From Erysipelotrichia bacterium (GTDB taxonomy: Bacteria; Bacillota_I; Bacilli_A; RFN20; CAG-826): a stretch of 64,000 nucleotides of DNA. The notes beneath the pieces are model-generated. The model made no database searches. It had not been told where the DNA came from and saw nothing but the letters and a program-made list of their open reading frames with translations. Where the stretch lies: assembly GCA_012522695.1 (NCBI GenBank), contig JAAYJX010000107.1:22408-86407 (forward strand), written 5' to 3'. The translations under genes were made by a program, and so were the position numbers. Below are positions 49,568 to 64,000 of this stretch, piece after piece (position 1 is the first letter of the stretch; the number at the start of each line of letters is the position of its first letter).

Positions 49568-52063
49568 TTATTTTTTCTGATAATTATTTTTTAAAAATTC
49601 TAACGCGTCACTTTCATTTAAAGGACGTGATAAATAATAACCTTGAGCATAATCACAATTGTATGTTTTTAAATATTCTAAATGTGTTTCGTTTTCAACG
49701 CCTTCACCAACAACAAGAAAACCAAGTTTTTGACCAAGCGAGATAATGTCTTCAGTAATCGCTTTATTAATTTCAATTAATTCAATACCTTGTAAAAAAG
49801 CTTTATCAATTTTTAAAGCGTTGATTTCTAAAGAAATGAGACGATGAAGTGAAGAAAAGCCCGTGCCAAAGTCGTCAATTGCCACACGAATACCTTTTGA
49901 CGTTAATTTTTTTAATAATTGGTTAATACCAAAATAAGACGTTGTAAATGAAACTTCAGTTAATTCAAGCCAAATAGAACGTGGATTAACACCAATTGAT
50001 TCAATAAGAGCTAAAAATTTATTAACAAATTGGCGATCAAGTAATTGTTGAAAAGAAACATTAATCGACATCGACATATGATCATAGCCTAAATCATGGA
50101 CTGATTTTAAGAAAGTCAAAGCTAAACGGTTAATTTTATCACCGTAAATAATCATTAACTTATTCCTTTCTAATAGGGGAATAAATTCTAAAGGAGGGAT
50201 AAGACCTAACTTTTCGCTTTTAAAGCGGGCTAGGGCTTCAAAACCACTTATTTCGCCACGTTTAACATTAAAGATTGGTTGATATTGTAAATATAGTTGT
50301 TCATTATCAATTTGTACTGAAGCATCAACTAATTCTTTTAAAATTTGTTTTTCGCGTTCAATTTTTAAAGCAAGACGATCATCAAAATAACTAATCTCAA
50401 TTAATTTATCATCACTAGCTCTTTCTTGCTCAGTCGTTAAAAGAACGTTTTTAAGAATCGTTTCAAGTTGATTTGGCTTAGTATTTGGAGGAATATGTAA
50501 AACACCAACCCGGCACGTCACGCGTTCACTCCATAACAATGGTTCTAAAACTTTAACGACCTTTAAATAAAACTGATGGATTTCTTCTTCACTATCATAA
50601 TTTTTAATATAAAAACTTAAACGTGTTTCATGAGTAAGATATAGTTTACAATTATCATTTTCTAAAACTTTAAGTTTATTACTAATTTTCTTCATTAAAT
50701 CTCTTATATAGTGATAACCATGACTACTCGTTAATTGTTGAATTGAATTTAAGTTTAATAAGAAAAATGTTTTTTTCGATTTTTTATCATAAGTTAAATC
50801 ATACGTCATAAGTGTTTCTAAATAACGACGATTATGTAAACCCGTCCATTCATCAAATTCACTTCTATGTTTAATTTCTGCCTCATATTTTTTAATTTCG
50901 TTAATATCAATAATGATACCTTCTATGGCAATTGTTTCTTTATCACTATTAATGATCGGTTCACCAATTTCTAAGACCCATTTTTTCTCCTTATTTTTTG
51001 TAATAATCGGATATTGAAAACGGTATGTTGTTTGGTTTTTAACAGCTTTAAGTTGTAAATGGTAAATTTCACTTAAATATTCAGGGGCGATTAAATCGAT
51101 AAATTTTAAATCACGATTATCAATAAAAGCTTCAGGTTCATAACCAGTTAATTCTCTTGAACCTTTGGAAACAAACACTTTCGTAAAATCTTTATCAATG
51201 CGACTACGATAAGCTAAACCTGGTAGATGCGATAACAAAACGTCTTTGCTTCTTTCGCTTTCAAGAAAAGAAAGTTCAAATGATTTACGAATGCTCGTAT
51301 CACGAATAATCGCAAAATAAGTAAAAATTTCATCATCGGGAATATCGACTTTAATAACGAATAAATGCGTATAAACAACATCACCATTAGGACGGATAAA
51401 ACGTTTATCTAGATCATATCGATCAATTTTGCCTTTGATAAAATCGTTAAAGTATTTTAAATCTTTTTCTAAATCTTCTGGATGAGTATATTTTCGCCAG
51501 TCAATTTCGGTATGAAGGTCTTCTTCGATTGGCACGCCTAAAATATCGCGAAAAGCTTTATTAGCTCGAAATGATTGTAAGCGACCACCGCCTCTACGGA
51601 AAAACCTTGTAATGGAAATACCAAAAGGCGCGTGATTAAAAAGAGCAACAAAAATTTCACGCATATCCGATGATCTTTTTGAAGCGATAACATATTCTTG
51701 ATCTTTTTCAATTGAGCGAACGGCAAAATTTAAAGCATCACCATTAATTGGTGTCGTTAAATATTCAAATGTTTGTAGTTCTTGTGATTCTAAATTGTTT
51801 TTAATTGTTTCTTCTTTGCCAAGTAGAATAACACGAATATCTTTTATTTTTTTATCAAATTTTAAATGAGCTAAAAGTTGGTAACCTAATAAATCAGGAG
51901 CGTCTAAATCTAAAAATAAAAGGGGCGAACTTTCAATTTTAGCAAAATAAGCTAGTGCTTTTTGAATATTCGAACTATAAAAAATTTTATAATTGTTTAA
52001 AGCTAGGCTAATCGTTTTGTAATGTTCGTCTTCTTTTGAGAAAACAATCGCATGTTTTGTCAT
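49568..52063 (-). CDS. Multidomain c-di-GMP signalling protein: REC-like, PAS, degenerate GGDEF and EAL phosphodiesterase
   Basis: 831 aa. N-terminal receiver-like fold. The GGDEF-domain start TGLHNRRYL is present but no GG(D/E)EF signature, so the cyclase looks degenerate. The EAL domain carries EALARF, DDFGTGFSSL and EGVE motifs and looks catalytically competent. Confidence 0.8.
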   Translation of the reverse strand: MTKHAIVFSKEDEHYKTISLALNNYKIFYSSNIQKALAYFAKIESSPLLFLDLDAPDLLGYQLLAHLKFDKKIKDIRVILLGKEETIKNNLESQELQTFEYLTTPINGDALNFAVRSIEKDQEYVIASKRSSDMREIFVALFNHAPFGISITRFFRRGGGRLQSFRANKAFRDILGVPIEEDLHTEIDWRKYTHPEDLEKDLKYFNDFIKGKIDRYDLDKRFIRPNGDVVYTHLFVIKVDIPDDEIFTYFAIIRDTSIRKSFELSFLESERSKDVLLSHLPGLAYRSRIDKDFTKVFVSKGSRELTGYEPEAFIDNRDLKFIDLIAPEYLSEIYHLQLKAVKNQTTYRFQYPIITKNKEKKWVLEIGEPIINSDKETIAIEGIIIDINEIKKYEAEIKHRSEFDEWTGLHNRRYLETLMTYDLTYDKKSKKTFFLLNLNSIQQLTSSHGYHYIRDLMKKISNKLKVLENDNCKLYLTHETRLSFYIKNYDSEEEIHQFYLKVVKVLEPLLWSERVTCRVGVLHIPPNTKPNQLETILKNVLLTTEQERASDDKLIEISYFDDRLALKIEREKQILKELVDASVQIDNEQLYLQYQPIFNVKRGEISGFEALARFKSEKLGLIPPLEFIPLLERNKLMIIYGDKINRLALTFLKSVHDLGYDHMSMSINVSFQQLLDRQFVNKFLALIESIGVNPRSIWLELTEVSFTTSYFGINQLLKKLTSKGIRVAIDDFGTGFSSLHRLISLEINALKIDKAFLQGIELIEINKAITEDIISLGQKLGFLVVGEGVENETHLEYLKTYNCDYAQGYYLSRPLNESDALEFLKNNYQKK

Positions 52064-52194: not shown

Positions 52195-52920
52195 TTAATC
52201 AAAAGAGTGAACTAATTCTTCTAAAAGCGTCTCAATTAAGCTACCAATATGAGGCTGAGCTTCTAAACCAATACGTAGGGCAGATATTAGCTGATTATCT
52301 TTGCCAACTTCGTAAGTAACGGCTTTAAGTAAAAGCCAAGGAACGTCATGAACATAACATGCCGTAATAACGCCACCAGATTCTGTATCAAGGGCGATTT
52401 TATTTTCAATGTGCGAAAAGTTTTTCTTAATTAATTCATTCGCAACTTTTAAATTCGTATGAAAAGTATTCGTTGAAACAAGTGGTCCACGACCAATATT
52501 TAAGTTTTCTGTCCGTGAGTTAAGTGTTTGAATTAAACGAATGTAATCATCTTCACTTGAATAAAAAACAGGTAAGTCTTTAATTTGTCCATATTTAGTA
52601 TTACCTAAAGCTTCTAAGTTCATATCACCTAAATGAACACGTTCAGCAATAAATAAATCACCTTGATGAAGGTTAGGACTAATTGAAGTAACCGCACCAA
52701 CAGAAATAACAATATAAGGTTTATACTTACTAATCATAAAACTTGTCACAATTGCGGAAGTAATATTTGAATAACCTGTATGGGCCAAACAAACATCTTT
52801 ACCAGCAAAAGAACCAACATAATAAGGATGTTTCATCGCGATTTTGTTTTCTTCGCTAATTTTTAGACGAGATTTAAAATATAAAATATCGTCTTCGGTT
52901 GTGCCAATAATTAAAATCAT
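52195..52920 (-). CDS. PNP_UDP_1-family nucleosidase (MTA/SAH nucleosidase-like)
   Basis: 241 aa. The N-terminal MILIIGTTEDD and the internal GSL / ESGG patterns resemble Pfs/MtnN-like phosphorylase-fold proteins. The assignment is moderate. Confidence 0.5.
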   Translation of the reverse strand: MILIIGTTEDDILYFKSRLKISEENKIAMKHPYYVGSFAGKDVCLAHTGYSNITSAIVTSFMISKYKPYIVISVGAVTSISPNLHQGDLFIAERVHLGDMNLEALGNTKYGQIKDLPVFYSSEDDYIRLIQTLNSRTENLNIGRGPLVSTNTFHTNLKVANELIKKNFSHIENKIALDTESGGVITACYVHDVPWLLLKAVTYEVGKDNQLISALRIGLEAQPHIGSLIETLLEELVHSFD

Positions 52921-54485
52921 TAATTACCACCTCTTCCTTTTTCAAAACGATTATTTTCTAAAAAGTTCATATAATTTTCTGGTCTAAGTGGTTCACTATA
53001 ATAAAACCCTTGAATACAATTTGCTCCCATTGATTGAAGAAGACGGATTTGTTCATATTCTTGAACACCTTCAATTACGACATATGCTTCTAAAATATGG
53101 GCAATTTTAATAATTTCACGGACTAAACCGCGTGATTTTTCATCAATTTCTAAATCACTTAAGAAAGCACGATCAATTTTAATAATGTCAAAAGGAATAC
53201 GTTTAATATAACTAAGTGAAGAGAAGCCTGTGCCAAAGTCGTCAATTGCTACTTTAATATTTAAAGCTTTAATTTTTTTGACAACCGCTAACAAATATAA
53301 AACGTCATATGGTGAAGGCGATTCAACGATTTCTACTTCTAATAACATCGGATTAATTTTATATTTTTTAATTGTTTCTTCAATATAAGGAACAACATCA
53401 CTACTAAAAATCATCCGTTTGGATAAGTTAACTGAAATAGGTAAAAGTCTTTTGCCGTGATCTCGCCAATGAGCTAAACGCTGACAAACAAGATCAAAAA
53501 CGTATTTATCAATTTCAATAATTAAATCAGATTGTTCGGCTAAAGAAATAAAAGCCGCTGGTGAAATTACACCACGCTCAGGATGAATCCAACGAAGTAG
53601 GGCTTCACTTGAAACAAAACGTTTAAGTTTTAAGTCGTATTTTGGTTGAAAGAAAACTTCAAATTCTTTTTTCTTTAAACCTTCTTCAATATCACGAGCT
53701 AAACCAACGTTACGTTCGCTTTTTTTAAACATTGAATCATTAAAAATAAAAATACCGCCGCGATCTGTATTAAGACGACCAAAATCACTTGCAATTAAAG
53801 CTGTTTGAAATAAACTTTCAGCCGAAGAGGTTTCTTTATTACGAATTGATAAACCATAGTGAGGATTAAAATCAATATTAACTTTTTCTTCACTTAAAAG
53901 ATGGTTAATATGTTCACTAAGTTTTTCTAAAGATTGTTGCATTTTCTTTTCGTTATATTTTGGAATAAAAAGTAAGAAGTTATCTGAATAATCATATCCA
54001 TAAAGTAATTTGGGATATTGTTTTTTTAATTCATCAATTGCTAAAAAAACCATACTAATAACTTTTGATTCTTTTTCATAACCATAACGTAAGAAAACTT
54101 CTTTTTTAAATTTAAACGTTGAAAAAGCAATTGCGACTGCTTCTTCATATTCTTTCCGACGGAAAAATTTATTAATTTGTAAAATTAAATCTCTTTCATC
54201 TAAAATATTTTCCGCTAATGGAAATAAGTTAGTATTTAAAACACGTTTAACAGATACTTGTTGCGAACGAGAGTAATTAATTAAGGCAAAAACTAAAAAG
54301 GCAATGCTTGTCAAAGTTAAAATAACAATTGCAAGTATTTTGTAGGCTAAATTACCATCAATGACTATAAAAGAGTCAAATAGCCCAGCGCTAACAATAA
54401 TATTTACAATAAAAAAGATAATAAAGCCTAAAAAATATAAGCTATATCGTAATGGATAATTAGGATTCTTATTTTTCATCTTCAT
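52920..54485 (-). CDS. Membrane-anchored degenerate-GGDEF / EAL c-di-GMP phosphodiesterase
   Basis: N-terminal 2 TM and a periplasmic-like loop. EAL domain with EALLRW and DDFGTGFSSL. No GGDEF signature. The start was probably trimmed to MKMKNKNP, and the track ORF extends to 54533. Confidence 0.75.
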   Translation of the reverse strand: MKMKNKNPNYPLRYSLYFLGFIIFFIVNIIVSAGLFDSFIVIDGNLAYKILAIVILTLTSIAFLVFALINYSRSQQVSVKRVLNTNLFPLAENILDERDLILQINKFFRRKEYEEAVAIAFSTFKFKKEVFLRYGYEKESKVISMVFLAIDELKKQYPKLLYGYDYSDNFLLFIPKYNEKKMQQSLEKLSEHINHLLSEEKVNIDFNPHYGLSIRNKETSSAESLFQTALIASDFGRLNTDRGGIFIFNDSMFKKSERNVGLARDIEEGLKKKEFEVFFQPKYDLKLKRFVSSEALLRWIHPERGVISPAAFISLAEQSDLIIEIDKYVFDLVCQRLAHWRDHGKRLLPISVNLSKRMIFSSDVVPYIEETIKKYKINPMLLEVEIVESPSPYDVLYLLAVVKKIKALNIKVAIDDFGTGFSSLSYIKRIPFDIIKIDRAFLSDLEIDEKSRGLVREIIKIAHILEAYVVIEGVQEYEQIRLLQSMGANCIQGFYYSEPLRPENYMNFLENNRFEKGRGGN

Positions 54486-55251
54486 CTCTCCTTTCTTCGC
54501 TTGAAGACCGCAGTTTTTCTTTTTCTTTTTCAATTAAAAGTTTGAGTTTTTCTTGCTGCTTAATTTTTTCAAATTCATCTAAGCCTTCAAAATCAACTGA
54601 AACTTTTTCTGTTTCTTCTTTGCGCTCTTTAACATTTTTAGAAATATCAAAAAGCGAGCTAATAAAAACGTATAAAAGAGGAACAAGACCAACGATAATA
54701 ATCGTAAAAGGATTGCGCGTAAATTTAACGAAAAGTCCTAAAGCTTTAGAGTTTTTAATCCAAACTCCTAAGACGTCTTCTTCTTTAATCGTGTCAATTC
54801 CTTTACCCGTGCTTTGATCGCACACACCATTAGGAAATTGAGAACAAGTTTCGGCATTTTTATTATCACCAAATGTTTTAAAAGTAAATTTACCATCATT
54901 TTCAATTTTTTCAATAACACGGTGAGTAATAATTAAGCCGTCACTTCGACGGAAATAAGTAATAATATCGCCATCCATTGCATCCTCACTACTAGGTCCT
55001 TTAATTTGATTAGCGGGGACGCGTTTAATAATAATACCAACATCAATCGGTAAAACTGGCTCCATCGAATCAGTTAAAACTGTCAGCATTTGATAATTAC
55101 CAAATCGTTGCACACCATGGTTACTTCTCGCCGTAATTAAACCAAAGACTTGAAAAAAGAGTAAAAGACCAGCAAGCGAACCTAAAACAATCGTTGTAAT
55201 TCTATTTACAAGTTTCTTTTTTGGTAACTTAACTTTTTCTTTCTTATTCAT
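54469..55251 (-). CDS. sipW: Signal peptidase I of ER/archaeal (SipW) type, with extended charged C-terminal tail
   Basis: 260 aa. N-terminal TM, SMEP catalytic-Ser motif (LTDSMEPVL) characteristic of SEC11/SipW-type SPases, a second C-terminal TM, then a K/E-rich tail. Confidence 0.75.
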   Translation of the reverse strand: MNKKEKVKLPKKKLVNRITTIVLGSLAGLLLFFQVFGLITARSNHGVQRFGNYQMLTVLTDSMEPVLPIDVGIIIKRVPANQIKGPSSEDAMDGDIITYFRRSDGLIITHRVIEKIENDGKFTFKTFGDNKNAETCSQFPNGVCDQSTGKGIDTIKEEDVLGVWIKNSKALGLFVKFTRNPFTIIIVGLVPLLYVFISSLFDISKNVKERKEETEKVSVDFEGLDEFEKIKQQEKLKLLIEKEKEKLRSSSEERRDEDEK

Positions 55252-56647
55252 CTTCTTTCCTTCTCATTTTAGCAACATTAATAACTTGTTCGCGCGCTTT
55301 TGCTAAAAGGGCTTCTTCTTCTAATCGTAGTTTTTCTAATCTTTCTTTTTCTTTTTTTGCTAAAATAGCGTCTTGTTTACGTTTAGCAAGAAGTAATTTA
55401 CGTTGACGTTCTTTTTCTTTCTTTTCAAGAGCTTTAAGTGCGGCAAGTTTTTTTGCCTCTTCGCGTTTTTCTAAAGCAAGTTGACGTTCTTTAGCTCTTT
55501 CTTCAAGACGAAGTTGTCGACGTTTTTCAGCCGCTTCAGCCCGTTTAATTTTTGCTTCAATTTGGGCAAGTGTTTCTTTTTTAACATCAACGCCGAAGGT
55601 TACGCTTTTACCAATAATTTTATCGTCAGTTAAATCAACATCAAGACGAACTTTTTTAAAGCGAGGTTTATAAAAGTATTGTTTCTTTTTATCACTTGGC
55701 ATCGTATGGTCACTTCTAAGTGTTAAATAAGAACTTAACATTAATAAATGTAAATCATCTAAATAATCTTCTTTAAATTCAATATCGTTTTGGCTAAAGC
55801 GATATTCAATACCTAAGACGTCATAACGTGTAATAAAAAGCCAGAGACGATACGCTGCTTGATATTCATAATTAAGACGCATTATATTTGTTTGTTGGAC
55901 CGGATCACTAACTGGTGCGACTTTACGCATTTCAAGCATAAAGCGCGAAGTTGTTAAGTATGTAATCCGTTTACGAATATGAAGAAGACGGTCGAGTAAA
56001 TCAGCATTAGCGTGTCTTTTCCCATCATCATCACTAGGAACAACAATCCGCATCTTAGTTTCAAATTCATATGATACTTCGTCGATTTTCATTTCTGAAG
56101 TTAATTTAACAATATCACTATGCCGTGTATCACTATGTTCAGATATATATTTATATCTAAGTTCAATAAAAGCTTGAAGACGACGAACAAGCGTCATAAT
56201 AAAACGGTTTTCATATATTTTTAATTCATCATCCATAAACATATTTAAAACTCGTTTAGGTTCGATTGTTCCATCACTACCAACTGAGCGGATATTTTGT
56301 GTATTTTGTGACATATGTTCAATTGAACGTTGGGTAATCTTTTTCGCCTTTTCAACACCGACAACTTCGGCTGTTTCTTTAATAAAACGATGTGGATCAT
56401 TAACAATTGCTTCTAAAGAAGGAAGCGCTCTTTCAATTTCTAAAATAAAATCAGGTGCATAAGTTTTAACTTCACGACGCGACACACCGCCATAAGTATT
56501 TTTAGAAGCAGCAAAAATATTTAAAAGTTCATGATATTCTTCATCACTACTTGCTAAACGTTTTAAGCGTGAAAAATGTTTTTGTTTTAAATCTTTAATA
56601 ATTTCGCTAGGAGTTAATACGGGAGCGTCTTTTTTGGTTTTTGCCAT
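55244..56647 (-). CDS. Hypothetical protein with a long C-terminal K/E/R-rich coiled coil. Partner of the AAA_5 ATPase; McrC-like role possible.
   Basis: 467 aa. No recognisable catalytic motifs beyond weak D...E.K-like stretches. Its start overlaps the sipW stop (8 nt) and it is 16 nt downstream of the ATPase gene. The last ~120 aa are a heptad-rich charged tail. Confidence 0.45.
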   Translation of the reverse strand: MAKTKKDAPVLTPSEIIKDLKQKHFSRLKRLASSDEEYHELLNIFAASKNTYGGVSRREVKTYAPDFILEIERALPSLEAIVNDPHRFIKETAEVVGVEKAKKITQRSIEHMSQNTQNIRSVGSDGTIEPKRVLNMFMDDELKIYENRFIMTLVRRLQAFIELRYKYISEHSDTRHSDIVKLTSEMKIDEVSYEFETKMRIVVPSDDDGKRHANADLLDRLLHIRKRITYLTTSRFMLEMRKVAPVSDPVQQTNIMRLNYEYQAAYRLWLFITRYDVLGIEYRFSQNDIEFKEDYLDDLHLLMLSSYLTLRSDHTMPSDKKKQYFYKPRFKKVRLDVDLTDDKIIGKSVTFGVDVKKETLAQIEAKIKRAEAAEKRRQLRLEERAKERQLALEKREEAKKLAALKALEKKEKERQRKLLLAKRKQDAILAKKEKERLEKLRLEEEALLAKAREQVINVAKMRRKEDE

Positions 56648-56662
56648 GACTATCCTCCTTTA

Positions 56663-58183
56663 TTAACCTATTTTTAAATAATCTGAAATAATTCTTTGTG
56701 ATTGCCAAAAAACACCTTTACCAAATAATTTATCAAGTTCACTCGAAAGTTCTTTTAATTCATCGTGCATAAACGCTAAGTTAAGCGAAGTAAATTTCTT
56801 TAAAACTTTAGAAGCAAAAATAAAATCAAGTGCTTCGTTTTCTGTACCCCCGCAAGCAATATAGTTCGAAGTAAAAAGACGAAGTTGTCTTAAAATTCGA
56901 TTACCAAAAGCAATCCGAAAACGATCAGCAACAAGTTTATCTAAACGATCAAATTTTGTTAATGCTTCTTTACTAATTGGGTAATTTGTTTGAGCGTTAG
57001 CAAAAAGTTTTAAAAAATCAGCTGAAGAAATTGAAACACCTTCCGTATATTCAACTGAACATGCTTCAATTTTTTCATTTAAAGTAATACTAATTGCTCG
57101 ATCATAAACTTTATCAGTAATTGTAAAAGTTGAGTCATCATTATTTGCTGTACCGACAAACCAAAGGTTTTGGGAAATAAGTAATTTACCATTTTCTAAT
57201 TGTTTAGGATTAATATTATCGGCTGTTCTTGTAATTTGAACTTTCCATTCATCAACCGAAGGCATTTCCATAATTGAAAGAAAGTCAGCAAAATAATATT
57301 CAATACGCGCGAGGTTCATTTCATCAAGAATAATCATATTCGGTTCTTGACGGTAACTTGCTTCATAAATAGCTTGTAAAAATTCGGTTTCATTAAACTT
57401 TTTCGTAAATTCATTAAAATAACCGAGCATTTCTGTTCTTTCTCGCCAAGATGGTTGAACAGAACATATTACCGCGTCATGTTTAAAAAACTTACCAATT
57501 GCATATGGTAAAGAAGTTTTACCAGTTCCCGAAATACCTTCTAAAATAATAAACTTCGATGTTCCTAACGCCGCAAACATCGTCCGAACTGTGCTCATAT
57601 CATAATATAAACAAAGCTGAGAGGCGGCAAAACGGAAAAAACGATCAACAATTTGTTCTAAAGAAATACCAATATCACTAGGTGGAACTTCGACAGTTGT
57701 ATCTAAATCAGCATATTTAATATCTATTGCTCCCAATTTTGGAAAGGCTTCTAAAACACGACGGTCACTACCTTCACCATCTTCACCTTCTGGTTGAAGA
57801 CCAAAAGAATCAGCTTTAAGTTTTAAAATTTCATTTTTTTCTTGAATTGCTAAAAATAATTCTTTATTTAATTTTTGCACTTCATCAAGAAGTTTTTCTT
57901 TTGAAACACGGCGATTATTAAAAACAATAAGTTTACGAACTAAAAAATACATAACGTAACCAAGTGAACCAATAAGGGCAAAGACTAAAATAATAAAAAC
58001 GACGAAGAGAATCCAGCCTCCTGCGCCGAATTGATGATTGTATGTTTGAAAAATTAATTTGTATTGACCAAAGTCACTACCAACTCCATACCAAGGTTCA
58101 GCAAAAATCGTTGCTAAAAAATGGCCTAAGTTTTTAAATAAAGCTTCAAACAACTCTCGAATGTAATTAAAAAATGCACTCAT
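56663..58183 (-). CDS. Membrane-anchored AAA_5 (McrB-like) ATPase/GTPase
   Basis: 506 aa. One strongly hydrophobic TM (WILFVVFIILVFALIGSLGYVMYFLV), a coiled coil, Walker A EGISGTGKTS, McrB-like Walker B/sensor ILDEMNLARIEYYF and FVGTANNDD. Confidence 0.65.
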   Translation of the reverse strand: MSAFFNYIRELFEALFKNLGHFLATIFAEPWYGVGSDFGQYKLIFQTYNHQFGAGGWILFVVFIILVFALIGSLGYVMYFLVRKLIVFNNRRVSKEKLLDEVQKLNKELFLAIQEKNEILKLKADSFGLQPEGEDGEGSDRRVLEAFPKLGAIDIKYADLDTTVEVPPSDIGISLEQIVDRFFRFAASQLCLYYDMSTVRTMFAALGTSKFIILEGISGTGKTSLPYAIGKFFKHDAVICSVQPSWRERTEMLGYFNEFTKKFNETEFLQAIYEASYRQEPNMIILDEMNLARIEYYFADFLSIMEMPSVDEWKVQITRTADNINPKQLENGKLLISQNLWFVGTANNDDSTFTITDKVYDRAISITLNEKIEACSVEYTEGVSISSADFLKLFANAQTNYPISKEALTKFDRLDKLVADRFRIAFGNRILRQLRLFTSNYIACGGTENEALDFIFASKVLKKFTSLNLAFMHDELKELSSELDKLFGKGVFWQSQRIISDYLKIG

Positions 58184-58239
58184 CTATTAACTCCAATAAT
58201 ATATGATAACTTTAGTTAAAGAAAAAATCACCCTTATTT

Positions 58240-59436
58240 TTAAATATCTTCTTCACTAGCAGCACTAAAGCGTAAGTTTGCACCGAACGATTTAGATCTA
58301 AGCTTGTTGCTAGAAAAGGCGTCCCAGCCTTCATACCAAATTTGAATTTTAATTTCGGCCACGCCTTTTGTGTCAGTTTTAGCAATTGGCTGACCATCAA
58401 TAAATTCGGCGCTATAAGTCGAAAAAATTGTATGTTCTTGAAGGGCTGGTTTGTAGTTAGGGTGATCAATTAATAAAGGGCGTACGCCTTGTAATGTCCC
58501 TGCTTGATGAAGCGAGGGGGTTATACTAGTTTCCAAAGGAATACTTTCAGTAGTAATATCCCCCCAATTACTTTCATCTAAAGGTTCTAAGAAATCGCCA
58601 TAAGCAATTTCATAACGTGAGCCAACTTCTGATTCATCATTTGGATTAATTTTAGATCCCTCAGGTGTGGCATCAAAAAATCCATCTTCATCTAAATCAA
58701 GGCGGCCCCCGACCGTTGTGTAATCATTTGTATCGCGACCCGGACTAATAATATCGCTCGTTAATTGGCTTTCAAAACCAAAACGCAAAACTTTCAGCAA
58801 TTCTTCGCTGCCATAAAATTCATTGTCCGCGCCGATGAAGATGCCATAATTAGCAACTCCACTTGATGATGTCTCACCATTAGTTGCTTTCGCTACCCGA
58901 AATAATATTGTAAAAGAAATAAATGTTTCTTTATCAGCGGGTATTATTTGTTTTGCTTGTGGACGAGAACTACCGGCAATTGGTTCTTGATATAAGTTAA
59001 TTGCATCACCTTTACTAAAACGTCGAGAAGTAATAGGCATAACTGCATTAGTAACCGAGAAACCATTGTGATAGATAATTTGTCGCAACGTTTGATTATT
59101 AACGACGTTGCTCGTCCAATAAACATAGCCGTCACCTTCAATTCCGTATTCATCTGGAACTAAAGAATATTTTTCTTGTTCATTAATCGAAATTGGTGTG
59201 GCGACACGAAAGCCTACTTCTCTTATGCCGACTTCTTCTTTATTTAAAAAGTCAAAGCCGATTGTCGTTGTGTTAGCTAAATATTCACCAATCGTATAGC
59301 CAAGATAAGAAATTAAGACAAACGCTGCTAAAACACTACTTGAAATCGAGGTTAAAATGATCGAACGTTTTTTACGCTTCTTATGATCATTAACTTCTTT
59401 TTCTATATTAATTTGACGCAAACGCAAGTCCTCCAC
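58240..59436 (-). CDS. Membrane-anchored extracellular protein, distant paralogue of the TasA-like family (TapA-like anchor/accessory candidate)
   Basis: 398 aa. N-terminal basic stretch plus one TM. C-terminal AEIKIQIWYEGWDAF...GANLRF resembles VDVTFRFWIEGEDEH...IGGVFKIDLKMY of the three downstream paralogues. The annotated start is GTG. A TTG 5 codons in has better GGAGGA spacing. Confidence 0.5.
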   Translation of the reverse strand: MEDLRLRQINIEKEVNDHKKRKKRSIILTSISSSVLAAFVLISYLGYTIGEYLANTTTIGFDFLNKEEVGIREVGFRVATPISINEQEKYSLVPDEYGIEGDGYVYWTSNVVNNQTLRQIIYHNGFSVTNAVMPITSRRFSKGDAINLYQEPIAGSSRPQAKQIIPADKETFISFTILFRVAKATNGETSSSGVANYGIFIGADNEFYGSEELLKVLRFGFESQLTSDIISPGRDTNDYTTVGGRLDLDEDGFFDATPEGSKINPNDESEVGSRYEIAYGDFLEPLDESNWGDITTESIPLETSITPSLHQAGTLQGVRPLLIDHPNYKPALQEHTIFSTYSAEFIDGQPIAKTDTKGVAEIKIQIWYEGWDAFSSNKLRSKSFGANLRFSAASEEDI

Positions 59437-59907
59437 TTTCTTAATAGAAATAGTCTAAAGAGACATCTTTGTTCGGTAAATTCACCATGTTTTGATTCTA
59501 ACCCCATTACTTGTTAGAGATCACTTGTGAAAAGATGCCTTTCTCACTAACTTGTTTAGACTTGTTAGGAGTCCCTCTAAAGAATAAAACGATGCTAACC
59601 GAGAATTGCCCAGAATCAATTAGTTATCTTATTCTTTCGGCAACTGGCTACCATCGTTTTGAAGGCCCTATAGTTTTGCGTCGCTAAATTTCTTTAGTTT
59701 TGCCTTTTTCGGTATTGATTATATAACAACTCAATAATCTTGTAAAGCCTTTTAATCAAAATTAGTCATATTTCACTAAATTATTACATTTTACTATGTA
59801 AAGAATGCAAAAAGACATATACTTTATCCAGTTATAACAACCTTAAACATAAAGAAAAAACCACCTAGAGATGGCTTTTCTTCATCTATTAATAATATCT
59901 AAATTAA

Positions 59908-60267
59908 TTATTTTTCTTTTTTAGCCGCTAATTCTTTTTCAAGTTCTTCACGTGCTTGACGACGCGCTTCTTCTAAAAGTTCTTCGTGCGATAAAGCCGC
60001 TACAGCGCCTTCTTTTTCCGTCATTAATGATTTAACAAGTAAGAAGACATTAAACAAGAATAGAATGATTAAAGGCAATACAATTAAAACAAAGAACCAA
60101 ACAGGATTCATTTGTAACCATTTAATAAACATATTAGATGATTCCCCTAACGTAGTTAAGGCAACAATTGAAATAGTAACGAGAACAACGGTAAGTACGA
60201 TCTGTGCGATAACTAAAACCAAATTCAGCCAGCTAGGCAATTTAATTTTTGTTTTTTCTTTATTCAT
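59908..60267 (-). CDS. Small membrane protein (2 TM, charged C-terminal helix)
   Basis: 119 aa. Two hydrophobic helices, then EELLEEARRQAREELEKELAAKKEK. Confidence 0.5.
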   Translation of the reverse strand: MNKEKTKIKLPSWLNLVLVIAQIVLTVVLVTISIVALTTLGESSNMFIKWLQMNPVWFFVLIVLPLIILFLFNVFLLVKSLMTEKEGAVAALSHEELLEEARRQAREELEKELAAKKEK

Positions 60268-60330
60268 ATATGAGCTCCATGCATATTAAAAAAATATATT
60301 CTTTACGATAAAACTATCTTAATAGAAAAA

Positions 60331-60371
60331 AACTAGGGTGTCAAATTAAATTTATTCGACAAGCCCTAGTT
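60331..60371 (-). terminator. Terminator hairpin after TasA-like gene 1 (copy A of a repeated element)
   Basis: AACTAGGG...GCCCTAGTT inverted repeat followed by a T-run on the minus strand. Confidence 0.6.
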
Positions 60372-60406
60372 ATTTTAGAAAACTACGTTATAAACTTTGT
60401 AAGAAA

Positions 60407-61300
60407 TTAAGCAATAACTGGTAATGCGTACATCTTAAGATCGATTTTAAAGACACCACCGATAGCAGCGTTAACTGCGTGTTCGTCTTCGCCTTCAATC
60501 CAAAAACGGAAAGTGACATCAACAGTTGGAGCAGCGGATGTAAGTGTAAGGAAGGGTTCATAATTGTCAGCAGCAGCTTCTGCTACAGTTGGGTAGTAAT
60601 CAAATGCAGCGCCTTCCACAACGTCAGTTAAAACTTCAGTGTCAAGATATTCTTTAACACCCCAAGCTTCATCTTGGTCATCACCAGTTTTGGTTAAATA
60701 ATTGTAAGTTGTTTCTGCTTCAGGTGAATAATGATAAAATGCAGCTCCACCTTTAATCGCGGCCATACGAACGGCTTTAACAGCAGCAACGTCTGCGGCA
60801 TCAGCGCTTGCAGCGGTAACTGCAGTGCCTGCGTCAAAATAAACGTTTAAATCATTTGTTGATTGTGCGCCTGAGCCACGAGCGATTGTTAATGTAAAGT
60901 CAATTAAATAACCATCGGCATCACCAGCAGCGGCTAATGTAATATCATCAATACGATCGGCAACTTGGCCTCCGCCATAGGTGTTGGCCTTCCAGACTGG
61001 TTTGTAAAAATCAATACCGTCGCCGGAAATGTCAGTAACCTTGTTACCGCCTGAAAGAACAACATTATTAACAGTTTTACCATCATTAACATAATCATTA
61101 GTTGTGGCAGTCATAGTGTTTAGGGATGAAACATAGTGAACACTTAAGTCATTATCTTGTGTTTCAACGGTTGCGCTACTATATGAGATAGATGCGCTAC
61201 GGACGGTTGTAAACCAAGCAAATGTTGAGCTGGTTGCAGCAATACCACTTAAAACAACGAGTCCCATAATTGTAAGTAATACTTTATTTTTCTTATTCAT
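60407..61300 (-). CDS. Secreted TasA/camelysin-like protein with SipW-cognate signal peptide (paralogue 1)
   Basis: 297 aa. MNKKNKVLLTIMGLVVLSGIAATSSTFAWFTTV matches the SipW-dependent signal class (compare B. cereus CalY ...GGGTFAFFSD). The mature part is Ala/Thr/Gly-rich. The conserved C-terminus FRFWIEGEDEHAVNAAIGGVFKIDLKMYALPV is present. Confidence 0.7.
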   Translation of the reverse strand: MNKKNKVLLTIMGLVVLSGIAATSSTFAWFTTVRSASISYSSATVETQDNDLSVHYVSSLNTMTATTNDYVNDGKTVNNVVLSGGNKVTDISGDGIDFYKPVWKANTYGGGQVADRIDDITLAAAGDADGYLIDFTLTIARGSGAQSTNDLNVYFDAGTAVTAASADAADVAAVKAVRMAAIKGGAAFYHYSPEAETTYNYLTKTGDDQDEAWGVKEYLDTEVLTDVVEGAAFDYYPTVAEAAADNYEPFLTLTSAAPTVDVTFRFWIEGEDEHAVNAAIGGVFKIDLKMYALPVIA

Positions 61301-61336
61301 AATTTTAAATTCTCCTTTTGTAATGAATATTCTTTA

Positions 61337-62227
61337 TTATAAGTTTACGGGTAATCCGTAAAGTTGTAATTCGATGTCGAATAATCCGCCAATGGCGTCA
61401 TTATCACAATGAACATCTTCACCTTCGAGCCATGCACGGAAGGTAACATCAACTGAAGCTCCTTTTGCCACACTAGCAATTGCAGTTGTAGCACCATCAG
61501 CAGTAGTCACATCAGTGTATTCAACAAACGCATTGTAATAAGGTCCGGCGTGGACAGCGGTTGTATACCCGTCTACACTATAAAGGTCTTCACCAGCGTC
61601 TTCGACAATGTGCTTATGTCCACCAGCTTCTGCTTCAGGTGAATAAATTAAGACGACAGCATCAGCTGCGCTAATAACAGCTAAGCGTGCAGCTTTAACA
61701 GCGGCAGCATTTTTAGCTTCTTGAGCTAATTCTTCTGGTGTTGCAGTACCCCCAGCGTATTCAACTTCTTTAGCAATAATTTTTGTGTCTGGACCAAGAT
61801 ATACTTTCATATCATCATCACCAATATCGTCAAGACTAATCGTGATCGTAAAGTCAACGTAATAACCATCAGCGCTTGTTGCACCCACGGTTGGAATTTC
61901 ATTAGCGACACGAGCAGATGGTTTGTCAAGTAGTGAATTCCAAACAGGTTTGTAAAAAACAAGACCATCACTTGAGACGTCTGTAATATCATTAATGCCA
62001 TCTAAAATGATTTCGTTGGCACTGCCAGTATCAGTCATACCAGAGTTTAATGAAGATTTAAAAGCAATATCTAAATTACCTTCTTTAGTAACGACTTTCG
62101 CGCTGGAATAATGTAGGGAAGCTGTTCGCGCAGTATAAAACCAAGCAAACGTTGAACTAATAGCAGCAATTCCGCTTAAAAAAGCTAAGCCAATTGTTGC
62201 TAATAAAATTTTGTTTTTCTTATTCAT
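61337..62227 (-). CDS. Secreted TasA/camelysin-like protein with SipW-cognate signal peptide (paralogue 2)
   Basis: 296 aa. MNKKNKILLATIGLAFLSGIAAISSTFAWFYTART. C-terminus FRAWLEGEDVHCDNDAIGGLFDIELQLYGLPV. Confidence 0.7.
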   Translation of the reverse strand: MNKKNKILLATIGLAFLSGIAAISSTFAWFYTARTASLHYSSAKVVTKEGNLDIAFKSSLNSGMTDTGSANEIILDGINDITDVSSDGLVFYKPVWNSLLDKPSARVANEIPTVGATSADGYYVDFTITISLDDIGDDDMKVYLGPDTKIIAKEVEYAGGTATPEELAQEAKNAAAVKAARLAVISAADAVVLIYSPEAEAGGHKHIVEDAGEDLYSVDGYTTAVHAGPYYNAFVEYTDVTTADGATTAIASVAKGASVDVTFRAWLEGEDVHCDNDAIGGLFDIELQLYGLPVNL

Positions 62228-62368
62228 GTAGAAAATCCTCCAATAGATTTCTCCTTTGTTGTTAAGGAGTTGTGAGGTCCAAATTGTTAATGGGACAATG
62301 GCCTCAAAGCGGGCAATTCGCTTCTAGTATCCATCAACGAGGGAGGTCAAATAAATACTAGCACCATT

Positions 62369-62398
62369 ATTATAGTATGTTTTGTAACTAAAATGCAA
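62369..62398 (-). promoter_or_regulatory. Promoter for the paralogue-2/1 transcript
   Basis: Minus strand TTGCAT, 18 nt spacer, TATAAT. It predicts a ~135-nt 5' leader. Confidence 0.5.
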
Positions 62399-62692
62399 GT
62401 ATTATGTTGTTACGAAGTAACAAGAAATTAAATTTTTAACATTTTTAAAAGTTTTTTGAAAAAAATTCGCTTTATTTTTATAAATTTAGATTTTTTAAGT
62501 GAATAAGTGACTTTGAAAAATGTGTGATTTTTTTAGTTTTTGTTTCTTTTTAAAAAACCATTATTTTTGTCGTAAAAAATATTTTTTTGCCTTGTGATGT
62601 TTTTTATAATAAAAATTGAGTTTTTTTGAGACTATTTTAGCCTTTTTGAAAAAACTAAATTTTAAAAATTATAAAAGCTGTTTTGGATAAAA

Positions 62693-62733
62693 AAACTAGG
62701 GCTTTTTATAAGTAAATTGTTTGCCCTAGTTAT
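62693..62733 (-). terminator. Terminator hairpin after TasA-like gene 3 (copy B of the repeated element)
   Basis: AACTAGGGC-(loop)-GCCCTAGTT with the same stem sequence as at 60331-60371. A T-run follows on the minus strand. Confidence 0.6.
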
Positions 62734-62755
62734 TTTGTTAGTTTATAAGAATTAA

Positions 62756-63829
62756 TTAAATGACTGACAATGCATACATTCTTAGGTCAATACTAAAGAC
62801 ACCACCAATTGCGGCGTTAACTGCATCATCGTCTTCGCCTTCAACCCAAAAGCGGAAAGTAATATGAGCAGTTGGATCAGCTTCAGTAAGTGTAAGAAGG
62901 GGTTTATAATTTGCGTCTTCAGCTTCGACAACAGTTGAAAAATATTTAAACTCAGAACCTTTTTCATTTATTGTCGGTGTTGAAGGGTCATCTTGAATAC
63001 CTTCAACAGCATTAATCACATCTTCAGGATCAGCGGCATCACCTAAAATTGATGTATTAGAATAACCTAAAATAGTATAAGTAGTTCCACCACTGTCTTC
63101 ACTTAAATAATTATAAAGAGGCTCCGCGTGTGGCGCGTAATAGAAAATAGGCTTTAAGGGGCTTATATCGTCTATTACGGGATTATCAGGGTCAGTAATG
63201 TCATAAGTAACATCTGTTTCAATTACGGCCATTCTTACGGCTTCAACGACTTTATTATTTCGATCTTGTTGTTCAATTTGAGCATTACTTGGATTTTGAT
63301 TTTCGCCTATAACATCAATTGGCGAAATAAGTGTCCCACGATCAAAATAAATATTTAAATCATTTGGCGAATAAAGGTTAACACCACGAGCTATTTCTAA
63401 AGTAAAATCAATTAAATATCCATCAGCAGATTTAGTAAGATTGCCTTTATTATCTTTGTAAGATAAATCTATTTCATTAATATAGTCAGCTATACTTGCA
63501 TCGCCTGGATCATAAGCACTCCAAACAGGTTTGTAAAAATTAATGCCATCGCCTGAAATATCAGTAACTTTGTTAAGACCAGAAAGGACAACATTATTAG
63601 AACTTTTTCCTTCATTAACAGAAAGATTTGTTGTTGCGGTCACTGAATTAAGTGATGATATATATTTAACACTTAGGTCGTTATTTTTTGTTTCAACAGT
63701 TGCGCTTGTAAAAGAAATTATCGCACTACGAACGGTAGTAAACCAAGCAAAGGTTGAACCAGTCGCCGCCGCACCACTTAAAACAACAAGGCCAATTGTT
63801 GTTAGTAATAATTTATTTTTCTTATTCAT
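62756..63829 (-). CDS. Secreted TasA/camelysin-like protein with SipW-cognate signal peptide (paralogue 3, with ~60-aa insertion)
   Basis: 357 aa. MNKKNKLLLTTIGLVVLSGAAATGSTFAWFTTV. N-terminal 110 aa nearly identical to paralogue 1. C-terminus FRFWVEGEDDDAVNAAIGGVFSIDLRMYALSV. Confidence 0.7.
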   Translation of the reverse strand: MNKKNKLLLTTIGLVVLSGAAATGSTFAWFTTVRSAIISFTSATVETKNNDLSVKYISSLNSVTATTNLSVNEGKSSNNVVLSGLNKVTDISGDGINFYKPVWSAYDPGDASIADYINEIDLSYKDNKGNLTKSADGYLIDFTLEIARGVNLYSPNDLNIYFDRGTLISPIDVIGENQNPSNAQIEQQDRNNKVVEAVRMAVIETDVTYDITDPDNPVIDDISPLKPIFYYAPHAEPLYNYLSEDSGGTTYTILGYSNTSILGDAADPEDVINAVEGIQDDPSTPTINEKGSEFKYFSTVVEAEDANYKPLLTLTEADPTAHITFRFWVEGEDDDAVNAAIGGVFSIDLRMYALSVI

Positions 63830-63856
63830 TTTTTTATTTCTCCATAAGCTTTTTAT

Positions 63857-64000
63857 TGATCGTAATGTTTACGAATTTCGATTGTTTCAATTGTAAAAGT
63901 CAGACCTTGATAAACATTAGAGTTACCTAATGTTGATTTTTCATAAAAAACATCACCATTATCTTTTGAGGCAAATTTATAAAAAGTTGAGGGGTCGCCA
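63857..64000 (-). CDS. 3' end of an upstream gene (partial, unknown function), probably co-transcribed with paralogue 3
   Basis: My translation of the minus frame gives ...GDPSTFYKFASKDNGDVFYEKSTLGNSNVYQGLTFTIETIEIRKHYDQ*, stopping at 63857-63859. Only 27 nt separate it from the GGAGAAAT RBS and the paralogue-3 start. Confidence 0.4.

Follow-up and report, generated by a model that had tools for sequence, protein, structure and literature searches.

A conserved operon in uncultured Bacillota that may build a TasA-like surface fibre with a SipW-type signal peptidase and a McrBC-like GTPase

The window is a stretch of 64,000 nts from an Erysipelotrichia bacterium (contig JAAYJX010000107.1), and it ends in a string of minus-strand genes that we name A to J. 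The string continues past the window end with U3, U2 and U1, for which we give positions in L005, a locus from the same contig. A c-di-GMP-I riboswitch and a divergent GGDEF gene also lie past the window end, alongside U1 and U2. The genes are as follows.

L005 5970-6809, past the window end: U1, 279 aa
L005 6812-9145, past the window end: U2, 777 aa
L005 9150-9977: U3, full gene, 275 aa
63853..64000, minus strand: 3' end of U3, last 48 codons and stop, the gene being cut at the window edge
62756..63829, minus strand: A, paralogue and predicted fibre subunit, 357 aa, with the SipW-type signal GSTFAWFTT
61337..62227, minus strand: B, paralogue, 296 aa
60407..61300, minus strand: C, paralogue, 297 aa
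59908..60267, minus strand: D, membrane protein, 119 aa
58240..59436, minus strand: E, predicted membrane anchor or nucleator, 398 or 393 aa
56663..58183, minus strand: F, McrB-like AAA+ GTPase, 506 aa
55244..56647, minus strand: G, McrC-like, 467 aa
54469..55251, minus strand: H, ER/archaeal-type (SipW-like) signal peptidase I, 260 aa
52920..54479, minus strand: I, membrane-anchored EAL c-di-GMP phosphodiesterase, 519 aa in the deposited call, 537 aa from the first TTG
52195..52920, minus strand: J, MTA/SAH nucleosidase, 241 aa (TIGR01704, 85.6 bits, cut-off 73.8)

An ORF check reproduces the coordinates and the minus strand that a previous sequence-only reading of this DNA had given for A, B, C, E and H. 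The U3 protein carries the same type of signal as A, B and C (YITYAWFYF). A gene remnant was also sought in the 528-bp gap between A and B, and the idea was rejected.

The locus is a genuine conserved operon in uncultured Bacillota. The order U1-U2-U3-pilins-D-E-F-G-H-I-J recurs in about 20 loci from Bacilli MAGs, in which I keeps its operon position. J is syntenic in the Bacilli loci and missing from Clostridia-type loci, and it is therefore probably not a core part. The same core is present in Clostridia and Eubacteriales MAGs, which contradicts the earlier framing of this set as a feature of a wall-less lineage. In each of the five distant loci found by way of G, F and G are accompanied by one or two S26 peptidases and by several xxAW[FY] proteins. 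Of the latter, those matching the A/B/C or E profiles number 4-5 in four of the loci and 9 in locus L029.

The paralogues A and B are 61% and 42% identical to C. In an alignment of 65 family members, T26, A28, W29 and F30 never vary and the K-rich start hardly does, so that the K-rich hydrophobic N-terminus with TFAWF(T/Y)T, already noticed in the three paralogues, stands far above chance. The family is large (more than 2,000 representatives when counted at 50% identity; 2,335 at E<=0.001) and unannotated; for one relative, JGI annotates a SipW-like signal. The AlphaFold monomer of C is all-beta (pLDDT 81.5, pTM 0.80), with residues 11-37 at low confidence. Its N-terminal helix has pLDDT <50, and residues 29-38, past the predicted cut, are unstructured with low pLDDT. 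By the family alignment and the monomer model, the 10-15 N-terminal residues beyond the predicted cut are conserved yet unstructured. The subunit model is a beta-sandwich or jelly-roll that can be superposed on the TasA fibre subunit. The TasA fibre is the closest likeness to this beta-sandwich among PDB folds, and the two best structural neighbours of the model are both strand-donation filaments. A Foldseek search of the PDB gives no match for the subunit model, and the family profile finds only chance matches among PDB sequences.

The relation to TasA proposed in the sequence-only reading stands for the cleavage motif and falls for the family. For the motif, hhalign pairs STFA/WFTT with the TasA cleavage site GTWA/AFND (the slash marks the cut, in STFA/WFTT a predicted one). 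For the family, A, B, C and E have no match to PF12389 (Peptidase_M73) at E<=0.1, a domain found in all true TasA homologues, and no Pfam or NCBIfam match to TasA or camelysin appears in A, B, C, E, U1-U3 or 56 distant relatives. Comparing A1, A4 and the locus-derived families with a 42-sequence TasA alignment, hhalign gives probabilities of 4-42%, mostly over the signal peptide and first strand; with single sequences the match to TasA is confined to the signal region. The SipW-cognate signal model TIGR04088 scores the N-terminus of A at 12.4 bits (E 0.14), below its 19-bit cut-off, and matches 2 of 56 relatives at E<=0.01. Given the negative searches, A, B and C fall outside the TasA family as judged from sequence, and have at most a TasA-like fold. 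No paper that we found combines SipW with Acholeplasma.

For E, single-sequence hhalign is too weak, and the comparison of E, like that of U1-U3, uses family profiles built from related loci. The A/B/C and E family profiles align with a probability of 98% (E 2e-13), so the shared C-terminal block (IQIWYEGWD in one, FRFWIEGED in the other), first picked out by eye, reflects real homology. In E, an R/K-rich region and a TM segment are present, and ISYLGYTxGxYLANxTT is conserved where A, B and C have TFAWF. The suggestion of a TapA-like anchor or nucleator is compatible with such a homologue bearing a different conserved N-terminal motif: E is a distant A/B/C homologue and a predicted membrane anchor or nucleator; with a conserved TM anchor of its own, different from the N-terminus of A, B and C, it would tether the fibre to the membrane or nucleate it there. 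The small protein D, conserved in 15 loci, has two TM segments by eye, which a hydropathy scan resolves as three overlapping segments between residues 8 and 84, and a charged C-terminal helix.

The best NCBIfam matches of the peptidase H are SipW (NF046067, 65.7 bits, E 3.8e-18, under the curated cut-off of 190) and archaeal-type signal peptidase I (TIGR02228, 46.9 bits, E 2.5e-12, under the curated cut-off of 51.85). The HMM comparison proposed earlier thus returns the two expected models as top matches, both below their cut-offs. The residues S62 (in SMEP), H110 (in T-H-R) and D129 (in GDN) are kept in 13 homologues, and H110 occupies the place of the Lys in P-type LepB. We take these three to be the catalytic set, following published SipW work. 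H has TM segments at 14-33 and 179-204 and a charged cytoplasmic tail. The SMEP box, the catalytic set and the top HMMs support the earlier assignment of H to the ER/archaeal (SipW-like) type rather than the LepB type.

F, the best conserved of the proteins, is predicted to place about 50 residues outside. After these come a TM segment (49-83), a predicted coiled coil (at about 90-125, where K, E and L form a heptad-like stretch) and an AAA+ GTPase domain like that of McrB. This domain has Walker A GTGKT, Walker B LDEMN and the invariant N347-N348-D349-D350, which can be read as NxD plus a second Asp, following a published description (PMC11090510). HMMER aligns the four residues gap-free to McrB N-T-A-D, so that an NxxD reading is also possible. 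The F profile matches the AAA+ domain of E. coli McrB (E 5.5e-5), and the AAA+ core matches the PADLOC phage-defence candidate PDC-M26A (E 3.8e-41). No Pfam match points to FtsB homology of the F N-terminus. G combines a McrC-like N-terminal domain (DUF2357, also present in its relatives) with a single K/E-rich helix some 105 residues long, and lacks a nuclease domain. The best superposition of its model is on McrC from two species, and the G profile finds only coiled-coil noise among PDB sequences. Unlike McrBC type IV restriction systems, F is membrane-anchored and has no DNA-binding domain, G has no PD-(D/E)xK nuclease, and the context is surface-protein export.

The sequence-only reading took the set for an undescribed machinery. 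That claim does not survive, as its extra components, F/G with the peptidase, match the CoCoPALM of Bell et al. 2024: a McrB-like GTPase and a McrC-like protein with a signal peptidase (PMC11090510). As described there, the GTPase has an N-terminal TM segment and a coiled coil (FtsB-like) and is an NxD variant, and the McrC homologue (DUF2357) has a coiled coil and usually no nuclease (PMC11090510). Our locus likewise has a McrB-like GTPase with a TM segment and a predicted coiled coil, a DUF2357/McrC partner that bears a coiled coil but no nuclease, and, within the operon, a gene of the signal-peptidase family; here and in every related locus that spans the region, H is the next gene downstream of G. 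CoCoPALM is covered in one paragraph, with analysis deferred and substrates absent from the main text, and the supplementary files of the paper mention none of CoCoPALM, TasA or SipW (PMC11090510). It is a kind of system that was named in 2024 and that nobody has studied. What the locus adds to that paper is the predicted substrates, a large family that combines a SipW-type signal with a TasA/thread-like fold. It also adds the anchored homologue, control by c-di-GMP-I riboswitches and a leader RNA that is conserved.

The regulatory elements are the following.

62689..62731, minus strand: terminator-like hairpin and T-run 3' of A, from sequence reading
62369..62399, minus strand: promoter-like site of B (CTTGCA, 17 nt, TATAAT), kept in related loci
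62228..62362, minus strand: conserved structured 5' leader of B
62324-62362: leader hairpin P1, loop CCUCCCUC, anti-SD
62307-62323: leader P2, loop AAUUGCC
62274-62305: leader P3, loop CCCAUUAA
62251-62269: leader P4
62225-62241: SD and start codon of B
59855..59880, minus strand: terminator-like hairpin 3' of D
59718..59746, minus strand: promoter-like site upstream of the riboswitch (TTTACA, 17 nt, TATAAT; 11/12 matches, the best in the region)
59636..59714, minus strand: c-di-GMP-I aptamer (RF01051, 66.5 bits, gathering 35, E 1.9e-11)
59579..59660, minus strand: terminator hairpin and U-tract, the expression platform of the E riboswitch, with a 5' arm that is the 3' half of the aptamer
L005 5853-5933: second c-di-GMP-I aptamer (RF01051, 65.5 bits)

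Aptamers occur at two conserved positions in the related loci, with 57-70 bits against the gathering threshold of 35. One heads E-F-G-H-I-J and the other U1-U2-U3-A, and B-C-D lies behind the promoter of B, which with its own promoter and leader is probably the major subunit. In both units the terminator overlaps the 3' end of the aptamer, so that bound c-di-GMP would be expected to allow read-through; from the predicted folds, both riboswitches are putative ON switches. Pilus or adhesin genes under c-di-GMP riboswitches exist in Clostridia, as in the case of C. difficile pilA1. Genes of that type similarly have a c-di-GMP aptamer and a competing terminator upstream, with a predicted ON logic; the locus differs from pilA1 in its type of fibre, which is not a type IV pilus, in having two riboswitches, and in the phosphodiesterase gene that is transcribed along with it. 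GGDEF and EAL genes flank the locus; in L029 the flanks carry HD-GYP and PilZ genes.

With the B. subtilis tapA-sipW-tasA operon, the locus shares a dedicated ER-type signal peptidase inside the operon, K-rich signals with a T-aromatic-A-x-F cleavage motif on the substrates, and an accessory protein that may anchor or nucleate the fibre. Here there are at least six substrates as opposed to two, together with the added McrBC-like GTPase pair and small membrane protein. The c-di-GMP riboswitch regulation is another difference, as to our knowledge such riboswitches are not known for tasA. We also compared archaeal strand-donation filaments, the Sulfolobus thread (7pnb) and the Pyrobaculum bundling pili AbpA, for which we know of no NTPase. 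As far as we know, TasA fibres, archaeal threads and chaperone-usher pili all assemble without an NTPase and are thought to need no energy source at the membrane, so that a role of F/G in assembly would be unprecedented. The archaeal filaments use a general signal peptidase, without a dedicated SipW gene (PMC9245690). The putative anchor here is a subunit paralogue, unlike TapA, for whose crystallised central domain a macroglobulin-like beta-sandwich fold has been reported (PMC9245690).

On balance we lean towards the reading that the operon builds a TasA-like surface fibre or matrix, switched on by c-di-GMP, with a SipW-type peptidase and a membrane-anchored GTPase derived from McrBC. Six preproteins (U1, U2, U3, A, B and C) would enter the membrane by their K-rich signal peptides, and H would cut them past the conserved Ala, at STFA/WFTT. 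The freed N-terminal strand would then slot into the beta-sandwich of the following subunit, in the manner of TasA fibres and archaeal threads. B and C would be the major subunits. The N-terminal domain of U2 is IgA1-protease-like, so U2, and with it U1 and U3, are likely minor or tip subunits. The part given to F and G is proposed from conserved linkage and topology: the GTPase and G, its putative nuclease-less activator, may form a ring-plus-plug complex on the cytoplasmic face. Peptidase and GTPase may be held together by charged helical tails, which D, F, G and H all have, and GTP hydrolysis would power or control the step in which subunits leave the membrane and join the fibre. I, the EAL protein encoded in the same transcript, would bring c-di-GMP back down. 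Tentatively, and as a possibility that we would not call probable, F and G would be the motor or gate of a kind of pilus biogenesis not characterised before, found in monoderm Bacillota. In it, a membrane-anchored, GTP-hydrolysing AAA+ ring, coupled by coiled-coil tails to the SipW-type peptidase, would drive the release and strand-exchange polymerisation of TasA-fold subunits under a c-di-GMP switch.

Other readings of the same genes are less convincing. The xxAWF proteins could be monomeric surface or secreted proteins (adhesins, coat) on a GTPase-regulated, dedicated SipW-type export or processing route, with no fibre. We hold this unlikely, since tandem small beta-sandwich paralogues with an anchored homologue and large putative tip proteins are the usual layout of a pilus operon, both top structural neighbours are strand-donation filaments, and conserved residues past the predicted cut are left unstructured in the monomer model. 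The locus could also be a passive fibre operon of the TapA-SipW-TasA type in which F/G is an unrelated McrBC-like defence module. The PADLOC match of the F core speaks for this, as do the McrBC relatives, which are mostly restriction systems (PMC11090510), and TasA-type fibres have no need of an NTPase; we still give it little credence.

A membrane-anchored NTPase with small membrane partners, and a hydrophobic N-terminus on every subunit, would suit a convergent machine like that of type IV pili, in which the N-terminal hydrophobic helix is kept as the fibre core and the GTPase extracts subunits as PilB does. This we consider very improbable: the peptidase is an S26 Ser/His enzyme and not an aspartic prepilin peptidase, the conserved motif follows the hydrophobic stretch instead of preceding it, the subunits have no G-1/E+5 signature, and the N-terminal helix is modelled at the low pLDDT given above. 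The least credible reading is a surface-coupled defence or sensing system, in which the McrBC-derived GTPase signals from surface proteins acting as phage-receptor decoys or sensors. It draws on the PADLOC match and on the NxD branch (F being also readable as NxxD), which includes the predicted defence systems CoCoNuTs (PMC11090510). Pfam and NCBIfam scans of the locus find no nuclease or other effector, the c-di-GMP control, like the neighbouring GGDEF, EAL and PilZ genes, speaks for adhesion or biofilm, and the chromosomal context is fixed, with syntenic flanks, and is not a defence island.

If the fibre reading with F/G in assembly is true, this strictly conserved, membrane-anchored GTPase would be the first NTPase tied to the TasA-fold/strand-donation class of filaments, and a clear case of the engine of a restriction system re-used in cell-surface biogenesis. 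The main limit is that the carriers found are all uncultured MAGs, and that the type of system had already been flagged in 2024. As the subunit family is large and unannotated, giving it a name would help to annotate many Bacillota of guts and digesters.

Both riboswitches and the new leader RNA of B lend themselves directly to experiment. The leader has no Rfam match at E<=1, and its structure comes from per-sequence folds and a comparison of hairpins; RNAalifold on a MAFFT alignment of the leaders is uninformative because the helices are out of register. The leader pattern matches at least 119 stretches of metagenomes. Among the matches listed, 12 lie directly upstream of a gene for an AW[FY] protein, and the remaining ones look like chance.

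The minus strand from 52195 to 64000 is a single dense gene string, in which the operon genes all have TAA as stop codon and no TGA in frame. In public copies of the contig (GCA_025563055.1 and others), the operon proteins are all annotated as 'hypothetical'. We list the features here, together with those beyond window position 64000, which are numbered on the longer copy of the same contig (L005).

62756-63829, minus strand: A, predicted fibre subunit ("pilin"), 61% identical to C
62228-62399, minus strand: conserved promoter and leader of B, the leader being about 135 nt (62228-62362)
61337-62227, minus strand: B, pilin paralogue, 42% identical to C
60407-61300, minus strand: C, pilin paralogue, the reference for the identities of A and B
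59908-60267, minus strand: D, small membrane protein
59880-59855, minus strand: terminator-like hairpin after D
59746-59718, minus strand: promoter-like site, the best of the region, just upstream of the aptamer between D and E
59636-59714, minus strand: c-di-GMP-I aptamer between D and E (Rfam, 66.5 bits, gathering 35)
58240-59436, minus strand: E, anchored homologue, with an R/K-rich N-terminus, one TM segment (24-46) and the C-terminal block common to A, B and C
56663-58183, minus strand: F, McrB-like GTPase: some 50 residues on the outside, then a TM segment (49-83), a stretch that is heptad-like, and an AAA+ domain
55244-56647, minus strand: G, McrC-like partner (DUF2357)
54469-55251, minus strand: H, SipW-like signal peptidase, with a SMEP box
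52195-52920, minus strand: J, MTA/SAH nucleosidase, above the TIGR01704 cut-off
49568-52063, minus strand: 831-aa PAS-GGDEF-EAL protein, immediately downstream of the operon
L005 4500-9977: U1 (279 aa), U2 (777 aa) and U3 (275 aa), with a GGDEF gene
L005 5853-5933: second c-di-GMP-I aptamer, upstream of U1 (65.5 bits)

The N-termini of A, B and C consist of MNKKNK, a hydrophobic stretch and then STFAWF(T/Y)T. This confirms the three tandem paralogues with a K-rich, hydrophobic, TFAWF(T/Y)T start that had been read from the sequence, and in an alignment of 65 relatives T26, A28, W29 and F30 are invariant. The operon runs on beyond the window, which ends within U3 (its 3' end is 63853-64000); upstream of U3 are U2, U1, a riboswitch and a divergent GGDEF gene (a 7-TM cyclase). 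The N-termini of U1 (SFTFAWLS), U2 (SFSYASYVY) and U3 (YITYAWFYF) are of the same kind. The U1 and U3 profiles match the A/B/C profile with 95% and 79% probability over the first ~55 residues only, and U2 has an N-terminal region that matches the structure of a putative IgA1 protease (3n6z, E 1.3e-6).

The proposed likeness of the paralogues to TasA, the B. subtilis fibre subunit, stands for the cleavage motif and the predicted fold, but not for the sequence as a whole. A, B and C have no match in Pfam or NCBIfam, TasA/camelysin models included, nor does any of 56 distant relatives in the same scan, and the family profile finds nothing among PDB sequences. Compared by hhalign with a 42-member alignment of verified TasA homologues, the family matches over the signal peptide and first strand only, with a probability of 4-42%. 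A/B/C are thus not TasA-like as judged from sequence. That alignment sets STFAWFTT against TasA's GTWAAFND, so cleavage is predicted to follow A28 and to leave Phe at P2', where TasA also has it. AlphaFold models C confidently as an all-beta protein (pLDDT 81.5, pTM 0.80), with only residues 11-37 poorly defined. A Foldseek search with this model found nothing; the list of structural neighbours of C includes, lower down, the cannulae CanX, chaperone-usher pilins and the Tafi pilin. With modest structural scores, we give a qualified yes to a TasA-like predicted structure. The family is unannotated and large, with 2,335 representatives at E<=0.001 and 484 at E<=1e-10.

The sequence-only reading described correctly both the SMEP box of H and the C-terminal block of E. 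Using profiles built from related loci, we find that the block reflects real homology between the A/B/C and E families (hhalign 98%, E 2e-13), with a confident core of the last 59 columns in a Viterbi path of 281 columns. In the window clade, E lacks TFAWF and has instead a conserved ISYLG(Y/F)x(V/I)Gx(Y/H)LAN(A/T)TT after the TM segment. In genomes further removed, the E-like proteins have GTFAWFE, and the ISYLG-type anchor is on a separate protein of 282-284 aa. An anchor that is a subunit paralogue and is left uncleaved, or is processed in another way, would fit a putative role as base or nucleator. H matches best SipW (NF046067, E 3.8e-18, 65.7 bits) and archaeal-type SPase I (TIGR02228, 46.9 bits), both below the curated cut-offs; S62, H110 (T-H-R) and D129 (GDN) are kept in 13 homologues, and H has a TM segment at each end and a charged cytoplasmic tail. 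Because of these matches, residues and layout, we assign H to the ER/archaeal type, as had been proposed, and not to the LepB type.

The F profile matches E. coli McrB (6hz4, E 5.5e-5), and the invariant N347-N-D-D of F fits the 'NxD followed by D/E' signature of Bell et al. but can also be read as NxxD. In two stretches, the AAA+ core of F also matches PDC-M26A, a candidate for phage defence in PADLOC (E 3.8e-41), which points to a close relationship with candidate defence GTPases. Bell et al. (eLife 2024, PMC11090510) describe a McrB-like GTPase clade fused to an FtsB-like TM segment and a coiled coil, and name CoCoPALM a system in which the McrB and McrC homologues both have coiled coils and are associated with a signal-peptidase-family gene, deferring its analysis to a later paper. 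The combination of F, G and peptidase here is exactly the one described there, which overturns the claim of an undescribed machinery; in the literature searched, we find no use of the term outside that paper. D, F, G and H all have long K/E-rich helical segments that are predicted to be cytoplasmic, and these suggest topology-based, coiled-coil contacts joining the peptidase and the GTPase pair with the small membrane protein. The system is divergent from TapA-SipW-TasA, with added parts, and is a member of the kind named CoCoPALM but not analysed. It is real, coherent and mechanistically intriguing, partly foreseen in the literature, and so far found in uncultured organisms only. The present analysis adds the substrates, with their identity and fold, as well as the anchored paralogue, both riboswitches and the leader RNA.

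Scanning one genome per species, we find 21 loci, every one of them from a Bacilli or Bacillota MAG, Ca. Enteromonas included. Wherever contigs extend far enough, the order is GGDEF (divergent), U1, U2, U3, one to three pilin paralogues, D, E, F, G, H, I (EAL protein) and J; in Enteromonas the pilin genes are transcribed divergently. Homologues of G lead to five more distant loci: L029 (Eubacteriales), L030 (Clostridia), L150, L151 and L152. All five have F (E 1e-174 to 1e-209), G, one or two S26 peptidases, and xxAW[FY] proteins matching the A/B/C or E profiles (nine in L029, four or five in each of the others). The system thus reaches beyond Mollicute-like lineages, and F and G belong to its core and are no mere passengers. 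Three of the five (L150, L151, L152) have an R/K-rich TM 'anchor' protein, and four have EAL or HD-GYP genes, with PilZ also in L029. LRR proteins of 1,679-1,743 aa with the same xxAW(F/Y) signal type are found at L030 7407-12446, L151 16072-21303 and L152 16404-21539; these proteins of the Clostridia-type loci are likely large adhesins using the same export and processing route.

Two c-di-GMP-I aptamers head the two operon halves, and both positions are filled in most Bacilli loci. These riboswitches were absent from the earlier description. For the aptamer between D and E plus 70 nt (59579-59746 region), the minimum-energy fold is a long hairpin followed by a U-tract, and the 5' arm of the hairpin is the 3' half of the aptamer. 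In 12 instances upstream of pilin genes, the terminator begins 5-19 nt inside the aptamer. Since terminator and aptamer overlap, ligand binding and termination would be mutually exclusive, and we predict this direction of regulation, an ON switch, for both riboswitches. Co-transcription of the EAL protein I suggests feedback. At L018 2148-2224, L009 3060-3138 and L028 5691-5765, the same-position riboswitch is best described as the c-di-GMP-I-GGC variant RF03167 (60-61.5 bits, gathering 59), scoring above the standard model.

The leader of B looks like a candidate undescribed cis-regulatory RNA, with no match in Rfam 15. It consists of four hairpins, P1-P4, plus a short hairpin sequestering the SD, and each of 10 homologous leaders has the same hairpin series. 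The P1 loop shows CCUCCCUC, the complement of the GGAGG Shine-Dalgarno (an anti-SD). The P2 loop (AAUUGCC) and the P3 loop (CCCAUUAA) are invariant, and the P3 stem covaries, with six or more sequence versions. At least 10 related loci have a homologous leader before one pilin gene; among the matches listed are 12 further metagenome leaders, all directly before pilin genes, as the filter required.

In the mechanism that we propose, c-di-GMP would switch on both transcription units, and H would cut the signal peptides from U1-U3 and A-C after the conserved Ala. Polymerisation, which we infer, would proceed subunit by subunit, the freed N-terminal strand of one completing the sandwich of the next; E would hold the fibre base, with U2, U1 and U3 as minor or tip parts. 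On the inner side of the membrane, F and G would assemble into a ring and plug like those of McrBC, and D, F, G and H would be linked together by their charged helical tails. The analysis itself shows the gene content and how it is conserved, the similarity in fold, the catalytic residues and both aptamers. The least certain step is the role of the GTPase, which may be release of subunits from the membrane, gating of the peptidase or remodelling of the base.

J is at the operon end in all Bacilli loci, Ca. Enteromonas and L150 included, and is absent in L029, L030, L151 and L152. It weakly matches the N-terminal domain of the Spiroplasma fibril protein Fib (E 1.9e-6), which probably reflects a common fold only. 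The 831-aa PAS-GGDEF-EAL protein has an N-terminal receiver domain, read from the sequence and not a Pfam match, and may be part of the same c-di-GMP circuit; L150 has a second large EAL protein at the equivalent place.
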